Virus record (IMG/VR): IMGVR_UViG_2778261154_000008
Direction: 5' to 3' (one strand)
DNA from: a virus
Taxonomy: Duplodnaviria > Heunggongvirae > Uroviricota > Caudoviricetes
DNA: 25,084 bases
The notes under the pieces were generated by a model. It saw only the letters and a list, made by a program, of their open reading frames with translations. It did not search any database and had not been told where the DNA came from. Below are positions 21,069-25,084 of the stretch, piece by piece. The position numbers and the translations under genes are program-made. Each line of letters starts with the position of its first letter. Position 1 is the first letter of the stretch.

Positions 21069-21656
21069 TCATCCCCGCGTGACGGACGACACGTTGTCGA
21101 TAATTTCCAGACAGGCGTCGGTCACTTTCTCCATGCGGTTAAACCAGCCGTTCAGGTATTTGCCCTGGGCAGGTTTGGATTTGATGATGTCGGCATAAAA
21201 GCGGGAACGACGGACAATGCAGCGGGTCAGCAACCAGTCCGGGGTGGACAGGCTCACTGCCTTACGGGTACGCGGACCGATGATGCCGTCAGCATCCACA
21301 TCAGCGGCTTCCTGCAAAATCCTGATAGCTTTTTTAACGCCATGCTGAACCGCCGCATCGAACACAAACATCGCCACGCCATCAGGCCACTGGTCACATC
21401 CGGCAGGCAGCCAGTAATCGCGCCAGTAAATCTGCGCGACCTGTTCGCGGGTTAAATCCCTGATGCGGGTATCCGGTTTACCGTCGCCGCTGACATCGGT
21501 TTTGCCGTCAATCACACCGTCGCGGCGGTCAGAAATGCCGTATCTGGTTTCGCCGCCACGGTCAGTGGGGTCATTGACATAGACGCCTTCGATATCGGGA
21601 CGCAGAATAAAATTCAGCGCATACTCAAAGGCCGGGGAGAATTTTTGATTTTCCAT
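21069..21656 (-). CDS. Endolysin, GH108-type muramidase with C-terminal peptidoglycan-binding domain
   Basis: 195-aa ORF; N-terminal FEYALNF...EGVYVNDPTDRGGETRYGIS matches the GH108 signature as I recall it; C-terminal DGIIGPRTRKAV resembles a PG-binding domain. No N-terminal hydrophobic/SAR segment. AGGTG RBS. Confidence 0.8.
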   Translation of the reverse strand: MENQKFSPAFEYALNFILRPDIEGVYVNDPTDRGGETRYGISDRRDGVIDGKTDVSGDGKPDTRIRDLTREQVAQIYWRDYWLPAGCDQWPDGVAMFVFDAAVQHGVKKAIRILQEAADVDADGIIGPRTRKAVSLSTPDWLLTRCIVRRSRFYADIIKSKPAQGKYLNGWFNRMEKVTDACLEIIDNVSSVTRG

Positions 21657-21667
21657 AAAAGCACCTG

Positions 21668-21696
21668 TGAAGCAGATTTAAACGTGGTCTGCTTCA
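21668..21696 (-). promoter_or_regulatory. 9-bp perfect inverted repeat in the endolysin leader, immediately upstream of its RBS
   Basis: tgaagcaga-N11-tctgcttca; on the mRNA the hairpin ends 12 nt before the ATG, next to AGGUG. Shares the TGAAGC motif with the 26-bp element. Confidence 0.4.
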
Positions 21697-21711
21697 TGGT
21701 GCCGGAGGCAT

Positions 21712-21737
21712 AAAAAAAGCCGGATTTACCGGCTTCA
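21712..21737 (-). terminator. Hairpin plus T-tract between the Mor/C gene and the lysis operon: intrinsic terminator and/or late-promoter activator site (copy 2 of a 26-bp repeat)
   Basis: Minus-strand RNA reads UGAAGCCGG-UAAAU-CCGGCUU-UUUUUUA: 7-bp GC-rich stem, 5-nt loop, U7. Begins 4 nt after the Mor/C stop and lies ~55 nt upstream of the endolysin ATG. Confidence 0.55.
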
Positions 21738-21741
21738 TTGA

Positions 21742-22191
21742 TTAAGGACGTCGTGGCGGACGACGAACGGGGTGAGGCAGGTTCGGGGAGTGGTAAAACA
21801 AATCCGGCTGGTATTTATTACACTCCAGACGCCGCATCCGCTTGATGGCCTTGTAGACGGTTTTATACGTCACCCCGTAACGCTGAACCAGTTCAGGAAT
21901 ATTATGGCCGTTAAAATCACGCCAGATACGCATATCCCGGACAAGATTCTCCAGAATATTCCCCCTCGGAACATAAACCTGCATCCCGCCGATATAGCGA
22001 CAAATCGCCACAACCAGCTCAAGGGAATGGGCAGGGTCTGCGCCAATCCGGGCCAGCTCTTTACGCAGCAGTGCGTTCAGTTCAGAAAGTAACGCCGGAT
22101 AAGCCGTGTTTTCCTGGTAATCGTTAAGGTATTCCAGAACGCTGTCGTCCCGGAAGTCTTCGAATAAATCCTGCTCTTTCATCTGTTTCAT
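21742..22191 (-). CDS. Mor/C-family transcriptional activator of middle/late genes
   Basis: 149-aa ORF; the segment DPAHSLELVVAICRYIGGMQVYVPRG...YGVTYKTVYKAIKRMRR closely resembles the Mu Mor/C family as I recall it; ATGA overlap with gemA; sits directly upstream of the lysis operon. Confidence 0.75.
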   Translation of the reverse strand: MKQMKEQDLFEDFRDDSVLEYLNDYQENTAYPALLSELNALLRKELARIGADPAHSLELVVAICRYIGGMQVYVPRGNILENLVRDMRIWRDFNGHNIPELVQRYGVTYKTVYKAIKRMRRLECNKYQPDLFYHSPNLPHPVRRPPRRP

Positions 22192-22739
22192 ACAGCAATT
22201 CTCCCGCTGTTTCGTGCGCGGGCATATGCACTGGTCAGTGCATCATAGCCGCGCAGCTTCCGCCCGGTTTCGCTCACAGGTAAAGGCACACCATGTCGGG
22301 CAAAGGCTTCCCGGATGCAGCGCATATGCCACTGTTTGAGCGTTTCGAGCACAACATGCAACGATTCCCCGTGACACCAGGCCAGCGTGGAAACACCCTG
22401 ACCGCCATTACGTCTGACCGTCAGGCGTTCAACGTATTTGTCCAGCGCAGCGTCGCTGATATCGGAGACGAAACCATCAAGGAACATCTGCTGCCAGATT
22501 TTATAAATCTTCTCGCGCGGTGTGACATGCCCCTTAAAGCGACGGCGGGGATGTTTTTTCTGCTTCTTAAAACCGCGCTCTTTCATGGCATCGAGCACAC
22601 GTTCCAGTTGTGCAACGGACAGCTCGCGGCAACTGGTTTTGCCCGTGTGCTGCACCAGAAAGGCGCGGTAAGTGTCATCGTCGAGTTGTAGATCACGACG
22701 GGCGACATGAATTAATTTAATCAGGGATGTGCGATTCAT
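22188..22739 (-). CDS. gemA: GemA-like regulatory protein (Mu gp16, DUF1018-type)
   Basis: Start taken at ATG 22739 (MNRTSLIKLIHVARRDLQLDDDTYRAF...) with GGAGG 8 nt upstream, rather than the longer listed form from 22793. Confidence 0.7.
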   Translation of the reverse strand: MNRTSLIKLIHVARRDLQLDDDTYRAFLVQHTGKTSCRELSVAQLERVLDAMKERGFKKQKKHPRRRFKGHVTPREKIYKIWQQMFLDGFVSDISDAALDKYVERLTVRRNGGQGVSTLAWCHGESLHVVLETLKQWHMRCIREAFARHGVPLPVSETGRKLRGYDALTSAYARARNSGRIAV

Positions 22740-22760
22740 TATCGTACCTCCAGAAAAGGG

Positions 22761-22780
22761 GGCGGTGCGGCAACACCGCC
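22761..22780 (-). promoter_or_regulatory. GC-rich hairpin upstream of the gemA RBS (possible attenuator between the accessory cassette and gemA)
   Basis: ggcggtg-cggcaa-caccgcc; on the minus strand it is followed by CCCUUUUCU and then GGAGG...AUG of gemA. It also lies ~30 nt upstream of the plus-strand ORF's ATG. Confidence 0.3.
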
Positions 22781-22812
22781 AGAATCCACTCACTAAACAG
22801 AGGAAACTTTTT

Positions 22813-23079
22813 ATGAAAAACAGTGAACAGCCTTATGATGTTGCAGGGTATGTCATTGCCTCAAGGTTGCTGATACTCCTTGTCAGAAAGGGGCTAATTA
22901 CCGCAGAAGAAGGCAAAACGATCCTCGAAGCCGCAGCAAGCGGAGCGGCAGAGGCTCCGGCATTGAGAACAACGAATAATCCCATCCTGCAAATATCACA
23001 GCTAATCACTGATACCATCAGTTTGTTAGACCAAGATTCTGATGAATATCAAAAGCCTCAGCCATCTGAGCATCCGTAA
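22813..23079 (+). CDS. Hypothetical 88-aa protein on the opposite strand to the phage operons (candidate moron or antisense-regulated gene)
   Basis: ATG 22813 preceded by AGAGGAAA. Lies in an otherwise non-coding 278-bp minus-strand gap in lower-GC DNA (hand count ~44%). Overlaps the 3' end of the convergent minus gene by 62 bp. One hydrophobic stretch (YVIASRLLILLV). Confidence 0.4.
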   Translation: MKNSEQPYDVAGYVIASRLLILLVRKGLITAEEGKTILEAAASGAAEAPALRTTNNPILQISQLITDTISLLDQDSDEYQKPQPSEHP

Positions 23080-23365
23080 GAATATCTTTATTTGATAGTC
23101 CCAGCCTGCGACGAATGTATTCCTCGCGGGCTGCTTCATTTTGTAGCGCCACGGCAGCTTCCACCTGGTTCATTTCACGGTTGATAATGCTCCGGACTTC
23201 TCTGGCGGTGAGGTCATGCTCAATACCATATTTAACAATATCATGCATACGTTCCAGCATCCTTAAATTAGCCATGACGTCATCAATATTAACTGGTGTG
23301 AATTTCATTTCTTTATTCTCTGGTTTATTCATTTCGTAATACCTCTTCGCAATAAAAGATTTCAT
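23018..23365 (-). CDS. Hypothetical 115-aa protein, lower-GC accessory gene
   Basis: ATG 23365 overlaps the stop of the upstream small ORF (ATGA); largely helical-looking; hand-counted GC ~43% over 23101-23340. Confidence 0.5.
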   Translation of the reverse strand: MKSFIAKRYYEMNKPENKEMKFTPVNIDDVMANLRMLERMHDIVKYGIEHDLTAREVRSIINREMNQVEAAVALQNEAAREEYIRRRLGLSNKDILTDAQMAEAFDIHQNLGLTN

Positions 23366-23508
23366 TGGGATAACGTTTTTGTATGCGCTCCATCACCTGC
23401 ATACATGTCTGCTCTGTGGGCCAGATTTTTTTCCGTTACCGGAATGGCATCGCAGGCATCATTTCCGCAGGTGCCAACCAGCAGGACAAAGCCAGTTGAC
23501 TTAATCAT
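23362..23508 (-). CDS. Hypothetical small Cys-containing protein (48 aa)
   Basis: Start taken at the internal ATG 23508 (MIKSTGFVLLVGTCGNDACD...) with AGGAAA upstream; stop overlaps the next start. The longer listed form would overlap the upstream gene by ~100 nt. Confidence 0.3.
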   Translation of the reverse strand: MIKSTGFVLLVGTCGNDACDAIPVTEKNLAHRADMYAGDGAHTKTLSQ

Positions 23509-24040
23509 GCTCGCTGATTTCCTGTGTTTCCGCCGGAACCGGTGAATAATCAAGAATGAGATAGCGCAGGACGTGGTCGGTGATATTCCAGCCACTGGAG
23601 CCACAAATAAAACGACCCAGCCGGATATCGATATAAGCCATCACAAAACGGGGCATTCCCTGTTTACACATCTCGTCATCCACTTCAGCAACGATGTAAA
23701 CCGACTCGCAGGTCAGTACGCCTGTCGCAAATTCTTTTGCCAGTGCCGGAATGGCATTGCCTTCCAGCCAGGGCAAAGAGCGGCGGAACGTGCACCATTG
23801 CGCACCATCAACATCGGGGTGCTCCGTTGAATTTCGCCCGGCAGGCGGCTCTGCCCGGGAGCGCGGAACGTCGTAAAAGCCGTTCAGTTCAGTCAGCACT
23901 CCGGCATCAACCGCATCACGCAGGAAATACACCATTGCAGAGACCGGCATCCTCATTTTGTCCGCCAGAACACCACAGGTCAGACGTCCGTAAGCCCGTA
24001 ATAATGTGCTGACACCGTTCAGAACTTTTGCATCAATCAC
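23501..24040 (-). CDS. Hypothetical 179-aa protein, early/accessory region
   Basis: GTG start at 24040 with GGAGG 7 nt upstream, 3 nt after the upstream stop; no family recognised. Confidence 0.5.
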   Translation of the reverse strand: MIDAKVLNGVSTLLRAYGRLTCGVLADKMRMPVSAMVYFLRDAVDAGVLTELNGFYDVPRSRAEPPAGRNSTEHPDVDGAQWCTFRRSLPWLEGNAIPALAKEFATGVLTCESVYIVAEVDDEMCKQGMPRFVMAYIDIRLGRFICGSSGWNITDHVLRYLILDYSPVPAETQEISEHD

Positions 24041-24043
24041 CGG

Positions 24044-24548
24044 TTATTCCTCCGTCAGTGCCACAAATTCAGAATGTTTAATGCGCTGGCATTCGGCAGG
24101 AACCGGTCCCTTAACCTCACCATCCAGCAGGCACACCTCAAACAAAATGCCGAATCCGTCACGGCTGTGGTGCATCGTCCAGACTGATTTGAGATCAAAC
24201 ATGTTGGGTACAACATCAACCCCGAGTTCATTACACAACCAGACCGGGAATGTGGGATATTTCCGGAGTTGCTCTTCATGTTCCTGAATAAGCGTCGCAT
24301 TGTTTCGGCCTTCCGGTGTTGTTATATCCGGTACAACGCCATAAAACTGAAATCCACCAATAAACAGTCCGTCTGATTTACCACGCCATAATTCCGGCGC
24401 TAATTGATTCATCCAGATACATTCAACCCGTTCATACCCTCTGTTACTGACAAGGGAAACACCGTCTGCGCCAAACGCACGCTGCAATGAGCAGATGATT
24501 TTGTCACGCTTAACAGAAACATCTTTCAGCCAGCGAATCGTATAACCG
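24044..24548 (-). pseudogene. Hypothetical early-region gene, probably 5'-truncated by the IS insertion
   Basis: The listed ORF runs to a GTG at 24574, but its first nine codons lie inside the IS3-family left end (which starts at 24549), so the native N-terminus appears to be missing. An internal Met at ~24412 could still give a shorter product. Confidence 0.45.
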
Positions 24549-24580
24549 TGAGGTAGCCTGAGTTTAACGGACACTCCTTC
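24549..24580. repeat. Left terminal inverted repeat of the IS3-family element (approximate extent)
   Basis: Begins with TG at 24549; the right end is outside the window, so the IR length cannot be confirmed. Confidence 0.45.
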
Positions 24581-24612
24581 CTGAAATAGAATGGCATCAG
24601 AAGGAGCTAATA

Positions 24613-24915
24613 ATGAGCAGAAAAACCCAACGTTACTCTAAAGAGTTCAAAGCCGAAGCTGTCAGAACGGTTCTTGAAAATCAACTTTCGATCAGTGAAG
24701 GCGCTTCCCGATTATCCCTTCCTGAAGGCACTTTAGGACAATGGGTTACCGCCGCCAGAAAAGGGCTCGGTACTCCTGGTTCCCGCACGGTGGCTGAACT
24801 GGAATCTGAAATTCTGCAACTGCGTAAGGCGTTAAATGAAGCTCGCCTTGAGCGAGATATATTAAAAAAAGCAACAGCGTATTTTGCACAGGAGTCGCTG
24901 AAAAATACGCGTTAA
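24613..24915 (+). CDS. IS3-family transposase OrfA (HTH / leucine-zipper subunit)
   Basis: 100-aa ORF MSRKTQRYSKEFKAEAVRTVLENQLSISEGASRLSLPEGTLGQWV... with a helix-turn-helix and a C-terminal heptad region typical of IS3 OrfA. Confidence 0.9.
   Translation: MSRKTQRYSKEFKAEAVRTVLENQLSISEGASRLSLPEGTLGQWVTAARKGLGTPGSRTVAELESEILQLRKALNEARLERDILKKATAYFAQESLKNTR
24864..24871 (+). promoter_or_regulatory. Candidate -1 programmed frameshift site of the IS (A7-G slippery run)
   Basis: AAAAAAAG sits in the orfA/orfB overlap (orfA codons TTA AAA AAA GCA); IS3-family elements classically shift on A6G-type motifs. Confidence 0.55.
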
Positions 24916-25084
24916 TCGAACAATGGCGACAACAATTTCCCATTGAAGCGATGTGTCAGGTATTTGGTGTATCCAGGAGCGGTTATTACAACTGGGTACA
25001 GCATGAACCCTCAGACAGAAAACAAAGTGATGAGCGGCTAAAACTGGAGATTAAGGTGGCACATATCCGCACTCGCGAAACATA
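24872..25084 (+). CDS. IS3-family transposase OrfB, N-terminal part (made as an OrfAB fusion by -1 frameshift); partial
   Basis: -1 frame relative to orfA, open to the window end; my translation reads LIEQWRQQFPIEAMCQVFGVSRSGYYNWVQHEPSDRKQSDERLKLEIKVAHIRTRET, typical of IS3 OrfB N-termini. Exact fusion point not determinable by eye. Confidence 0.75.

Follow-up and report, generated by a model that had tools for sequence, protein, structure and literature searches.

Low-GC genes upstream of gemA in a Mu-family prophage: probably the promoter-distal part of a Mu-type early operon

The segment at positions 22795-24548 of the viral DNA analysed here (the window, 25,084 nucleotides in full) is best read as the promoter-distal part of the semi-essential early operon of a Mu-family prophage, a reading to which we give a probability of roughly 0.88. 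An earlier reading of the letters alone (the sequence-only reading) had flagged a low-GC patch at this place; judging from homology and gene order, the patch consists of the function-unknown early genes normally found between gam and gemA in Mu and its relatives. In tblastn comparisons, all but one of the four minus-strand ORFs, and the plus-strand ORF as well, were orthologous to early genes of Mu or SfMu, and every ORF of the segment had a PHROG match. The synteny of the early operon is also retained, with gemA and mor present in the window and the gam side cut off by an IS600 insertion. On the minus strand the order runs from IS600 through a 5'-truncated DUF5420 gene, gp11, a frameshifted 60-aa ORF and gp14 to gemA and mor, with gp15 convergent on the plus strand (Table 1).

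In an intact phage, these genes would share one translationally coupled transcript, made in lytic growth from the early promoter Pe, and their products would act as non-essential accessory factors. Their description as accessory early factors follows from their position. Among relatives, DUF5420, gp12, gp13, gp14/gp15 and even gp11 have been naturally lost or replaced, which lends indirect support to their being semi-essential, that is, dispensable for plaque formation. The early module as a whole is related to those of Mu and SfMu, its region being 85% identical to SfMu. The late module next to it is unrelated and richer in GC; a search of 50,697 phage records gave no close nucleotide relative for the late region.

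Table 1. Features of the early region and of the adjoining insertion sequence, in window coordinates
Feature	Position	Strand	Details
Mor-family middle-gene activator	21742..22191	-	Pfam Mor, E = 4e-30; 61% aa identity to Mu Mor
GemA (gp16)	22188..22739	-	183 aa from ATG at 22739; Pfam GemA, E = 7e-33; 79% aa identity to Mu GemA
GC-rich hairpin	22761..22780	-	GGCGGTG-N6-CACCGCC, then CCCTTTTCT run; terminator-like match; directly upstream of gemA ribosome-binding site
Mu gp15 homologue	22813..23079	+	88 aa; 54% aa identity to Mu gp15, no indels; phrog_8747, E = 7e-26
Mu gp14 homologue	23018..23332	-	104 aa from ATG at 23332 (most likely start); 72% aa identity to Mu gp14; phrog_6075, E = 1.5e-42
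60-aa early ORF, frameshifted	23325..23508	-	+1 frameshift, T7 run at 23426-23432 (plus strand)
Mu gp11 homologue	23501..24040	-	179 aa, GTG start, intact; 80% aa identity to Mu gp11
DUF5420-family gene, SfMu gp11 orthologue	24044..24548	-	first 14 codons lost to IS600, 168 codons remain
IS600 left end (IS3 family)	24549..25084	+	splits prophage early operon; identical (100%) to copies annotated as 'IS3-like element IS600 family transposase'
IS600 orfA	24613-24915	+	Pfam HTH_Tnp_1, E = 1.5e-20

Gene content and state of the early segment

The gp11 homologue matches PF25754 (Phage Mu Gp11 C-terminal domain, Gp11_C) over residues 90-167 with 133.6 bits (E = 3.3e-39), where the gathering cut-off is 27 bits. 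Its N-terminus gives winged-helix fold matches, and the protein would probably bind DNA through this putative N-terminal winged helix. A scan for gp11 using one genome per species returned one locus, in Citrobacter. The gene is closely spaced with its neighbours: its GTG start lies 3 nt from the DUF5420 stop, and it overlaps the following small ORF by 8 nt (ATGATTAA).

That small ORF is broken. Its frame is open at 23362-23604 on the minus strand, and the 48 aa counted from the ATG at 23508 are a remnant (23362-23508) of a 60-aa gene. When aligned with the window, the intact copies (183 nt) of E. coli STEC388 and RM11911 have six T residues where the window has seven; in E. coli FDAARGOS_943 and VL40 the ORF is likewise annotated as 'frameshifted' by RefSeq. 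The ORF is without a Mu counterpart and sits at the position of Mu gp12 and gp13, both of which are absent here.

The DUF5420 gene has been damaged in another way. Homology with the intact prophage ends at 24549, and the open frame (24044-24574, minus strand) contains phage sequence only over 24044-24548. The truncated gene is probably inactive. A chimeric ORF with a GTG start at 24574 could still express the truncated product. The protein is 99.4% identical to SfMu gp11, listed in the description of SfMu as ORF11, a function-unknown early gene that SfMu has and Mu and D108 lack (PMC4406740). The PF17457 (DUF5420) profile gave no match for the window protein in the Pfam-A copy used; a near-identical RefSeq protein (99.4% aa identity across the 168 residues retained) is named 'DUF5420 family protein', and a profile of the window's own family reaches P0135 (E = 8e-6), which has a precomputed PF17457 match. 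An exhaustive HMM search for relatives of DUF5420 recovered 11 representatives in 1.84 billion proteins, none of them annotated. The structure model of the protein is confident and has no PDB counterpart among solved structures.

Of the five genes two are broken in this copy, and both of them, DUF5420 and the 60-aa gene, are probably dead. Moreover, IS600 would stand between the segment on one side and Pe, gam and the transposase genes on the other. Considering this position between the segment and its promoter, the minus-strand genes are probably silent and the prophage is probably defective, although the window stops inside IS600 and leaves the prophage beyond it out of view.

The sequence-only reading of this gene content was borne out in part. 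Orthology and synteny with Mu and SfMu place the segment, as it had proposed, in the Mu 'semi-essential' early region upstream of gemA; the boundary it drew at 24548 is exact, with the IS600 end at 24549; the convergent plus-strand ORF is where it was expected; and the close coupling claimed for the minus-strand ORFs is seen in the spacing on either side of gp11. The four minus-strand ORFs were all found at their coordinates, but the 48-aa ORF proved to be a remnant and the 115-aa ORF is likely to encode 104 aa. The products are indeed without known function, whereas the statement that none carries a recognisable motif fails on the PF25754 match of the 179-aa protein and on the PHROG matches.

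The convergent gp14 and gp15 genes

The start of gp14 is most likely the ATG at 23332, since Mu gp14 and the RefSeq annotations of VL40 and STEC388 begin there; the longer product read earlier (115 aa, 23018-23365) arose because the open frame extends to 23365. The gene has a dN/dS of 0.25-0.39. Antisense to the early operon lies gp15, the 3' end of which overlaps gp14 by 62 nt. Its dN/dS is about 0.4, and a ribosome-binding site (GAGGA) occurs 8 nt upstream of its ATG. Homologues that have diverged to an aligned identity of 18-24% are found at this position and in this orientation too, and a profile search with gp15 retrieved 26 clusters, all hypothetical. That gp15 might be a spurious ORF was considered and set aside in view of this conservation and of the dN/dS. 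Both genes were present together in 14 of 14 loci belonging to at least four diverged lineages, with overlaps of 20-71 nt, and we infer that they act as a pair.

One way in which such a pair could conceivably work is as a self-immunity system resembling Tab/anti-Tab, in Mu as well as in its enterobacterial relatives. In this scheme, gp15 would be an effector made by the resting prophage, acting on incoming phage or on a host process, and gp14, produced from the lytic early operon, would be the antidote that neutralises gp15 once the prophage itself is induced. The promoter and phenotype of tab are known from the Pseudomonas Mu-like phage JBD26 (PMC10884400), where two genes of 83 aa each, anti-Tab (gp30, plus strand, part of the lytic operon) and Tab (gp31, minus strand), converge with a 47-nt 3' overlap. 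The window, in which both genes of the pair are intact, has the same layout, with gp14 on the operon strand and gp15 antisense to it; common to both is a small, convergent, 3'-overlapping gene pair inside the lytic operon of a transposable Mu-like phage. The consistent co-occurrence of gp14 and gp15, together with the purifying selection on gp15 and its own ribosome-binding site, would favour such a role, and gp15 and Tab are both small, acidic proteins (pI 4.6 and 4.7, respectively). In phage vB_YpM_3, gp14 is kept and most of gp15 is lost, an order of loss that an antidote and its effector would allow.

Against this, the two systems share no detectable sequence homology: hhalign gave a 0.35% probability for gp15 with Tab, and BLASTP an E of 1.6 for gp14 with anti-Tab. 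Their locations also differ, the present pair lying in the early operon upstream of gemA and Tab between the terminase genes. A search for a conserved sigma-70 promoter upstream of gp15 gave no match of 9 or more of 12 positions, the best (7-8 of 12) being neither convincing nor conserved. Furthermore, genes that physically overlap will co-occur whatever their function. All told, we consider the self-immunity reading unlikely. Were it true, it would supply a function for two orphan genes of Mu, a 60-year-old model phage, and would mean that the Tab/anti-Tab gene layout recurs without sequence similarity. Mu itself offers an inexpensive test of the idea, and a positive outcome would be genuinely interesting.

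Base composition and the accessory-cassette reading

Another possibility, put forward by the sequence-only reading, is that the segment is an accessory cassette gained by horizontal transfer, foreign in composition, whose genes make up a so far undescribed module for defence, anti-defence or exclusion. The compositional dip itself is real: the GC content of 22801-23340, counted earlier as about 43-44%, was recomputed as 43.5%. No other 540-nt stretch of the window has a lower GC (z = -3.0), and a value this low is reached in only 0.3% of windows. The figure of 65-68% given for structural genes was too high, the computed range being 54-62% with a mean of 58%, and the contrast between this stretch and the structural genes accordingly shrinks from about 22 points to about 14.

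More importantly, a patch of foreign composition specific to this prophage is contradicted by its relatives. The orthologues in Mu and SfMu carry the same GC content (gp14, 45.5%; gp15, 45.7-46.1%; DUF5420, 46.5%; gp11, 53%). The intact E. coli prophage with 99.9% identity has 49.8% GC in its early genes (gam to ner) vs 57.8% in its late genes, with single genes of the early region as low as 43% (gp7 and the repressor) or 45.5% (gp9). The segment therefore does not stand out as a foreign island or moron would, since its GC equals that of the orthologues and lies within the range of the intact early region. Given the same low GC in the Mu and SfMu orthologues and the roughly 50% GC of the whole early region of the intact relative, the composition is, on these comparisons, a trait of the family beside a GC-richer late module. 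As these sequence comparisons have shown, the low GC of gp14 and gp15 was inherited with the genes; recent acquisition, of which low GC would be the mark, was considered and rejected in view of the equally low values in the orthologues. Considering that the dip is statistically real, gp14 and gp15 may still have had an ancient foreign origin within the Mu lineage.

Apart from the GC minimum, the variability of the interval among relatives speaks for a cassette, as do the function-unknown state of all its products and the confidently predicted DUF5420 fold that lacks a PDB match. Early regions of transposable phages do carry host-interaction genes, Aqs1 of DMS3 being an example, and this too would favour it. 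Nonetheless, the segment consists of Mu or SfMu early-gene orthologues within an early region that is low in GC throughout, identical arrangements already exist in RefSeq genomes, and the damage to two of its five genes also weighs against it. Direct searches for a defensive function gave nothing: a PADLOC-DB 2.0 scan of all ORFs returned no match below E = 0.01 (the single match, of gp14 to PRTase_III-A, had E = 0.018), the NCBIfam scan yielded nothing significant, and neither Pfam nor NCBIfam gave a match to a defence or anti-defence family. Likewise, none of the residents found in the Gam-to-GemA interval matches a known defence or anti-defence family, and when the sequences of DUF5420, gp11, gp14 and gp15 were searched against solved structures, no match at E <= 1 was obtained. 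We therefore regard a cassette of this kind as quite improbable. The sequence-only reading had itself allowed that clear homology to Mu early genes of known housekeeping function, with similar composition in related phages, would make this ordinary early-region content; the homology and the composition were both found, but the genes concerned have no known housekeeping function.

Between gp15 and gemA, the hairpin listed in Table 1 resembles a terminator oriented with the early operon. It is conserved between the window type and the Mu type and, among 42 loci, occurs in every one displayed with an antisense gp15 gene. Related hairpins occur where an antisense ORF starting MKI.YDE precedes gemA; the hairpin is also found in two loci without a recorded gp15 (L032 and L076) and is absent where the last gene of the slot runs in the sense direction. 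An Rfam scan of 21500-25084 gave only a sub-threshold match to sroD. A separate gem promoter was proposed in the older Mu literature. It is very improbable that gp15 is no real gene and that the 278 nt separating gp14 from gemA serve as a regulatory spacer (with the terminator-like hairpin and possibly the gem promoter) holding an incidental ORF: the conserved hairpin, the highly conserved sequence directly upstream of gemA, the proposed gem promoter and the lack of a clear gp15 promoter would fit, but the ORF stays open at 88 aa without indels despite 46% aa divergence between the window and Mu, its dN/dS is about 0.4, its ribosome-binding site is good, and it has a PHROG family and diverged homologues that share its location and orientation.

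The modular Gam-to-GemA interval and its known relatives

The preferred reading, that of an ordinary Mu-type early operon, is also in keeping with the interval's behaviour across 43 related loci. At least 18 architectures were found there, bearing out the expectation that gene content would vary among relatives. Gam and gp11 lie 101-355 bp apart in loci without a DUF5420 match and 652-866 bp apart in those with DUF5420, a single gap of 1299 bp without a DUF5420 match being the exception; the distance from gp11 to GemA ranges from 78 to 3391 bp. These comparisons have shown the interval to be modular, with a near-constant gp11 flanked by two slots that swap small, functionally uncharacterised genes. 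Ten other residents of the variable slot gave only sub-threshold HTH and DUF2513 matches when scanned with Pfam, and nothing usable was found in the literature on DUF5420, Mup11-15 or arm/cim/lig.

In itself the flagged segment matters little. RefSeq already contains prophage sequence that is nearly identical to it, its orthologues in Mu and SfMu have been sequenced and have stood as 'hypothetical' for decades, and this copy is damaged by IS600 and a frameshift. What the analysis adds is the map of the Gam-to-GemA interval in enterobacterial Mu-family phages, the DUF5420 model without a solved counterpart, and the recognition of gp14 and antisense gp15 as an inseparable convergent pair with the layout of Tab/anti-Tab, a defence pair in Pseudomonas Mu-like phages.

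Among the closest known systems are the intact prophages of E. coli FDAARGOS_943 and VL40 in RefSeq, which share 99.8-99.9% nucleotide identity with the window over 22100-24549, along with its gene set and frameshift. In both, the operon that IS600 stops in the window runs on through DUF5420, gam, the kil-side genes, B, A and ner to the repressor, and the 99.9%-identical intact prophage has the order gam-DUF5420-gp11 through to gemA-mor. The DUF5420 gene is full length in FDAARGOS_943 and is split into two short ORFs in VL40. SfMu is another, with 84.8% nucleotide identity between its early region (gp11-gp17; NC_027382; PMC4406740) and 83% of the window's 22100-24600. Where the window has only the broken 60-aa ORF, the slot in SfMu is occupied by gp13, a further gene of 102 aa (SfMu gp14) and what remains of gp12, and SfMu lacks the IS that splits the window's operon. 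Finally, Mu itself (NC_000929, with Mup11-Mup15 between gam, Mup10, and gemA, Mup16) shares the order and orientation of the genes, including an antisense gp15 that overlaps the 3' end of gp14 by 62 nt, and the same per-gene GC pattern. The window differs from Mu in its extra DUF5420 gene between gam and gp11, in the frameshifted 60-aa ORF that replaces gp12 and gp13, and in late genes that are unrelated to those of Mu at the nucleotide level.

Gene content and identity

The segment at 22795-24548 is an already known sequence, namely a Mu-family early region of the ordinary kind, in a copy that IS600 has truncated and that is partly decayed. Its nucleotide identity is 99.8-99.9% to the prophages of E. 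coli FDAARGOS_943 and VL40, 84.8% to Shigella phage SfMu and about 79-80% to Mu-like Yersinia phages, and the same arrangement was found again in three IMG/VR contigs and two RefSeq genomes. All five ORFs reported by the sequence-only reading were recovered by the ORF call, and their location in a Mu early region upstream of gemA is borne out by synteny and by orthology to Mu and SfMu early genes. On the minus strand the order is IS600, DUF5420, gp11, small ORF, gp14 (with gp15 antisense to it), GemA and Mor.

Features of the early region and the adjoining late module
Feature	Position	Strand	Source or remark
Late/structural module	1-22100		58% GC
GH108 endolysin	21069-21656		late module
Mor	21742-22191	-	Pfam
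GemA	22188-22739	-	Pfam
Terminator-like GC-rich hairpin, GGCGGTG-N6-CACCGCC + T-run	22761-22780	-	directly upstream of gemA ribosome-binding site
gp15 homologue, 88 aa	22813-23079	+	ORF call; convergent with 115-aa ORF, 62-nt overlap
gp14 homologue ORF, open frame 115 aa	23018-23365	-	ORF call
Small ORF	23362-23604; 48 aa from ATG at 23508	-	ORF call
T7 run	23426-23432	+	in small ORF
gp11 homologue, 179 aa, GTG start	23501-24040	-	ORF call; Pfam PF25754
DUF5420 ORF	24044-24574; phage sequence only 24044-24548 (168 codons)	-	ORF call
IS600 end	24549-24574		in frame with DUF5420

When the annotated Mu, SfMu and intact E. coli prophage regions were compared by tblastn, amino acid identities to Mu were 80% for gp11, 72% for gp14, 54% for gp15, 79% for GemA and 61% for Mor. 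In the annotated Mu region DUF5420 is absent, and Mu gp12 and gp13 have no counterpart in the window; the DUF5420 protein is 99.4% identical to SfMu gp11. The 179-aa protein matched the Pfam family "Phage Mu Gp11 C-terminal domain" (E = 3e-39), and each ORF of the segment matched a PHROG, all of unknown function. The genes are tightly packed: 3 nt separate the DUF5420 stop from the GTG that starts the 179-aa ORF, which in turn overlaps the small ORF by 8 nt, ATGATTAA.

Decay of this copy

The segment is bounded at its high-coordinate end by IS600, which is 100% identical to annotated copies and has an orfA carrying HTH_Tnp_1 (Pfam). Its proposed boundary at 24548 proved exact, as the match to intact prophages ends at 24549. 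The insertion cost DUF5420 its first 14 codons, corresponding in the predicted structure to the first beta-strand and the beginning of a long helix. With a GTG start and nine codons contributed in frame by the IS600 end, a chimeric ORF of 176 aa arises that read-out from the IS could express.

In the intact relative, the early promoter (Pe), ner, A, B, kil and gam lie directly upstream of this segment. Since IS600 separates the segment from this side, transcription of the minus-strand genes from Pe has probably ceased, and the prophage, in a window that ends inside IS600, is probably defective.

A second lesion affects the small ORF. The 48-aa frame first described does begin at its ATG, yet it is part of a 60-aa gene that is unbroken in E. 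coli STEC388 and RM11911. In the window a run of seven T replaces the six of intact copies and causes a +1 frameshift. RefSeq flags the same frameshift in FDAARGOS_943 and VL40, which makes it a trait of the lineage rather than a sequencing error confined to the window. Unbroken copies terminate in ATGAATAA, which overlaps the ATG at 23332; this ATG is therefore the most likely start of the gp14 homologue, giving 104 aa as in Mu and RefSeq. Thus the open frame of 115 aa was correctly seen, but its reading as the gene is a by-product of the frameshift.

Composition and variability

The measured GC of 22801-23340, 43.5%, agrees with the earlier hand count of 43-44%. No 540-nt stretch elsewhere in the window has a lower GC (z = -3.0), and the value is reached by only 0.3% of windows. 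Structural genes were put at 65-68%, too high against a measured 54-62% (mean 58%). The Mu and SfMu orthologues have the same GC as the window genes (gp14 45.5%, gp15 45.7-46.1%, DUF5420 46.5%, gp11 53%). From gam to ner, early genes of the intact E. coli prophage have 49.8% GC, versus 57.8% for its late genes; gp7 (43%), gp9 (45.5%) and the repressor (43%) are other early genes with equally low values. Because low GC is shared by orthologues and intact early region, the dip is, by these comparisons, a family trait of the Mu/SfMu-type early module, made conspicuous by its junction to a GC-richer late module. A foreign insertion as its source is rejected, the orthologues having the same GC.

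Identity to SfMu is 85% for the early module. For the late region, 50,697 phage records contained no close nucleotide relative; Klebsiella phage Kp4866-3 came nearest (73.6% over 23% of the query). A mosaic junction between the modules lies around gemA-mor, Mor being 61% and GemA 79% identical to the Mu proteins.

Variability was sampled in 73 IMG/VR loci encoding gp11, 43 of them also with Gam and GemA. Gam and gp11 lie 652-866 bp apart in the 26 loci that carry DUF5420; of the 17 loci with no match to it, 16 have a distance of 101-355 bp and one a gap of 1299 bp. From gp11 to GemA the distance ranges from 78 to 3391 bp, and 18 or more gene architectures occur in the 43 loci. Reshuffling of the same kind is seen in sequenced phages, and on this sample the variability of the cassette characterises the phage family as a whole. 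The commonest residents of the gp11-to-GemA slot are gp12 and a 183-aa protein with Myb/HTH-like repeats (WTPEEDALL...), found in 23 loci of the Salmonella type (within L043-L072), with only sub-threshold Pfam HTH matches. Ten other residents had no Pfam match above cut-off.

Defence families yielded one marginal PADLOC match only (E = 0.018) among the segment ORFs, an NCBIfam scan of them gave nothing above cut-off, and solved structures searched by sequence with four of the proteins returned no match; none of these searches connects any of the segment's ORFs with known defence or anti-defence families. The observation of the earlier account is partly confirmed. Its interpretation is partly supported, being right about region and variability and wrong about foreign cargo. 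Orthology and composition are essentially those it would have accepted as ordinary early-region content, except that the conserved Mu genes are themselves without known function.

The DUF5420 family is tiny, with 9 clusters in 5.8 billion proteins and 11 representatives in 1.84 billion, and a distant homologue sits in a Mu-like prophage wholly without gp11. Even homologues of 20-28% identity retain a nearly invariant motif at the C-terminus, IKHSEF(V/I)ALTEE, as well as a YFKL strand at the N-terminus. The structure model is confident, and its fold had no match among solved structures.

Antisense genes beside gemA

By its pattern of conservation gp15 is a real gene, because the open frame is kept (exactly 88 codons and zero indels between window and Mu types at 46% amino acid divergence), dN/dS between these types is about 0.4, a ribosome-binding site (GAGGA) is present, and far more diverged homologues found by profile (18-24% identity in alignment) keep position and orientation.

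In the early-operon direction the hairpin before gemA resembles a terminator. Among loci L013-L082 it occurs in all those displayed with an antisense gp15 gene and in two without recorded gp15 (L032 and L076), and is missing where the last slot gene lies in sense direction. A variant stem, GGCGGC/GCCGCC, that looks compensatory occurs in L037 and L061, whose gemA is preceded by an antisense ORF starting MKI.YDE. The hairpin could attenuate early transcription ahead of gemA-mor or stabilise the 5' end of the antisense mRNA.

In some loci without gp14/gp15 (among L037, L039, L049, L061, L065, L013, L070 and others) a different antisense ORF adjoins gemA, which suggests that this position is a dedicated site for antisense genes. 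Just before gemA the antisense strand reads MKIDYDE in L037 and L061, resembling a 136-aa ORF of L065 with a weak, below-cut-off Pfam DUF2513 match (E = 7e-5), and MKINYDE in L013, L070, L073 and L077.

By profile, gp14 occurs in 14 of 42 loci and gp15 in exactly those 14, always convergent, with 3' overlaps of 20, 41, 62 or 71 nt across at least four diverged lineages; phage vB_YpM_3 has kept gp14 and lost most of gp15. This layout (22813-23332) is that of Tab/anti-Tab in the Pseudomonas Mu-like phage JBD26, two convergent 83-aa genes with a 47-nt overlap (locus L087, 13377-13833). There tab, which is antisense and has a promoter of its own, serves as a defence expressed by the prophage, while atab, within the lytic operon, shields the phage against its own Tab (PMC10884400). 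A similar role for gp14/gp15, likewise an antisense gene convergent with a lytic-operon gene, is nonetheless improbable: the pairs share no sequence similarity (hhalign probability 0.35%, BLASTP E = 1.6) and differ in genomic position, no convincing or conserved sigma-70 promoter was found for gp15, and overlapping genes co-occur whatever their function. In Mu, antisense gp15 overlaps the 3' end of gp14 by 62 nt, identical to the window.
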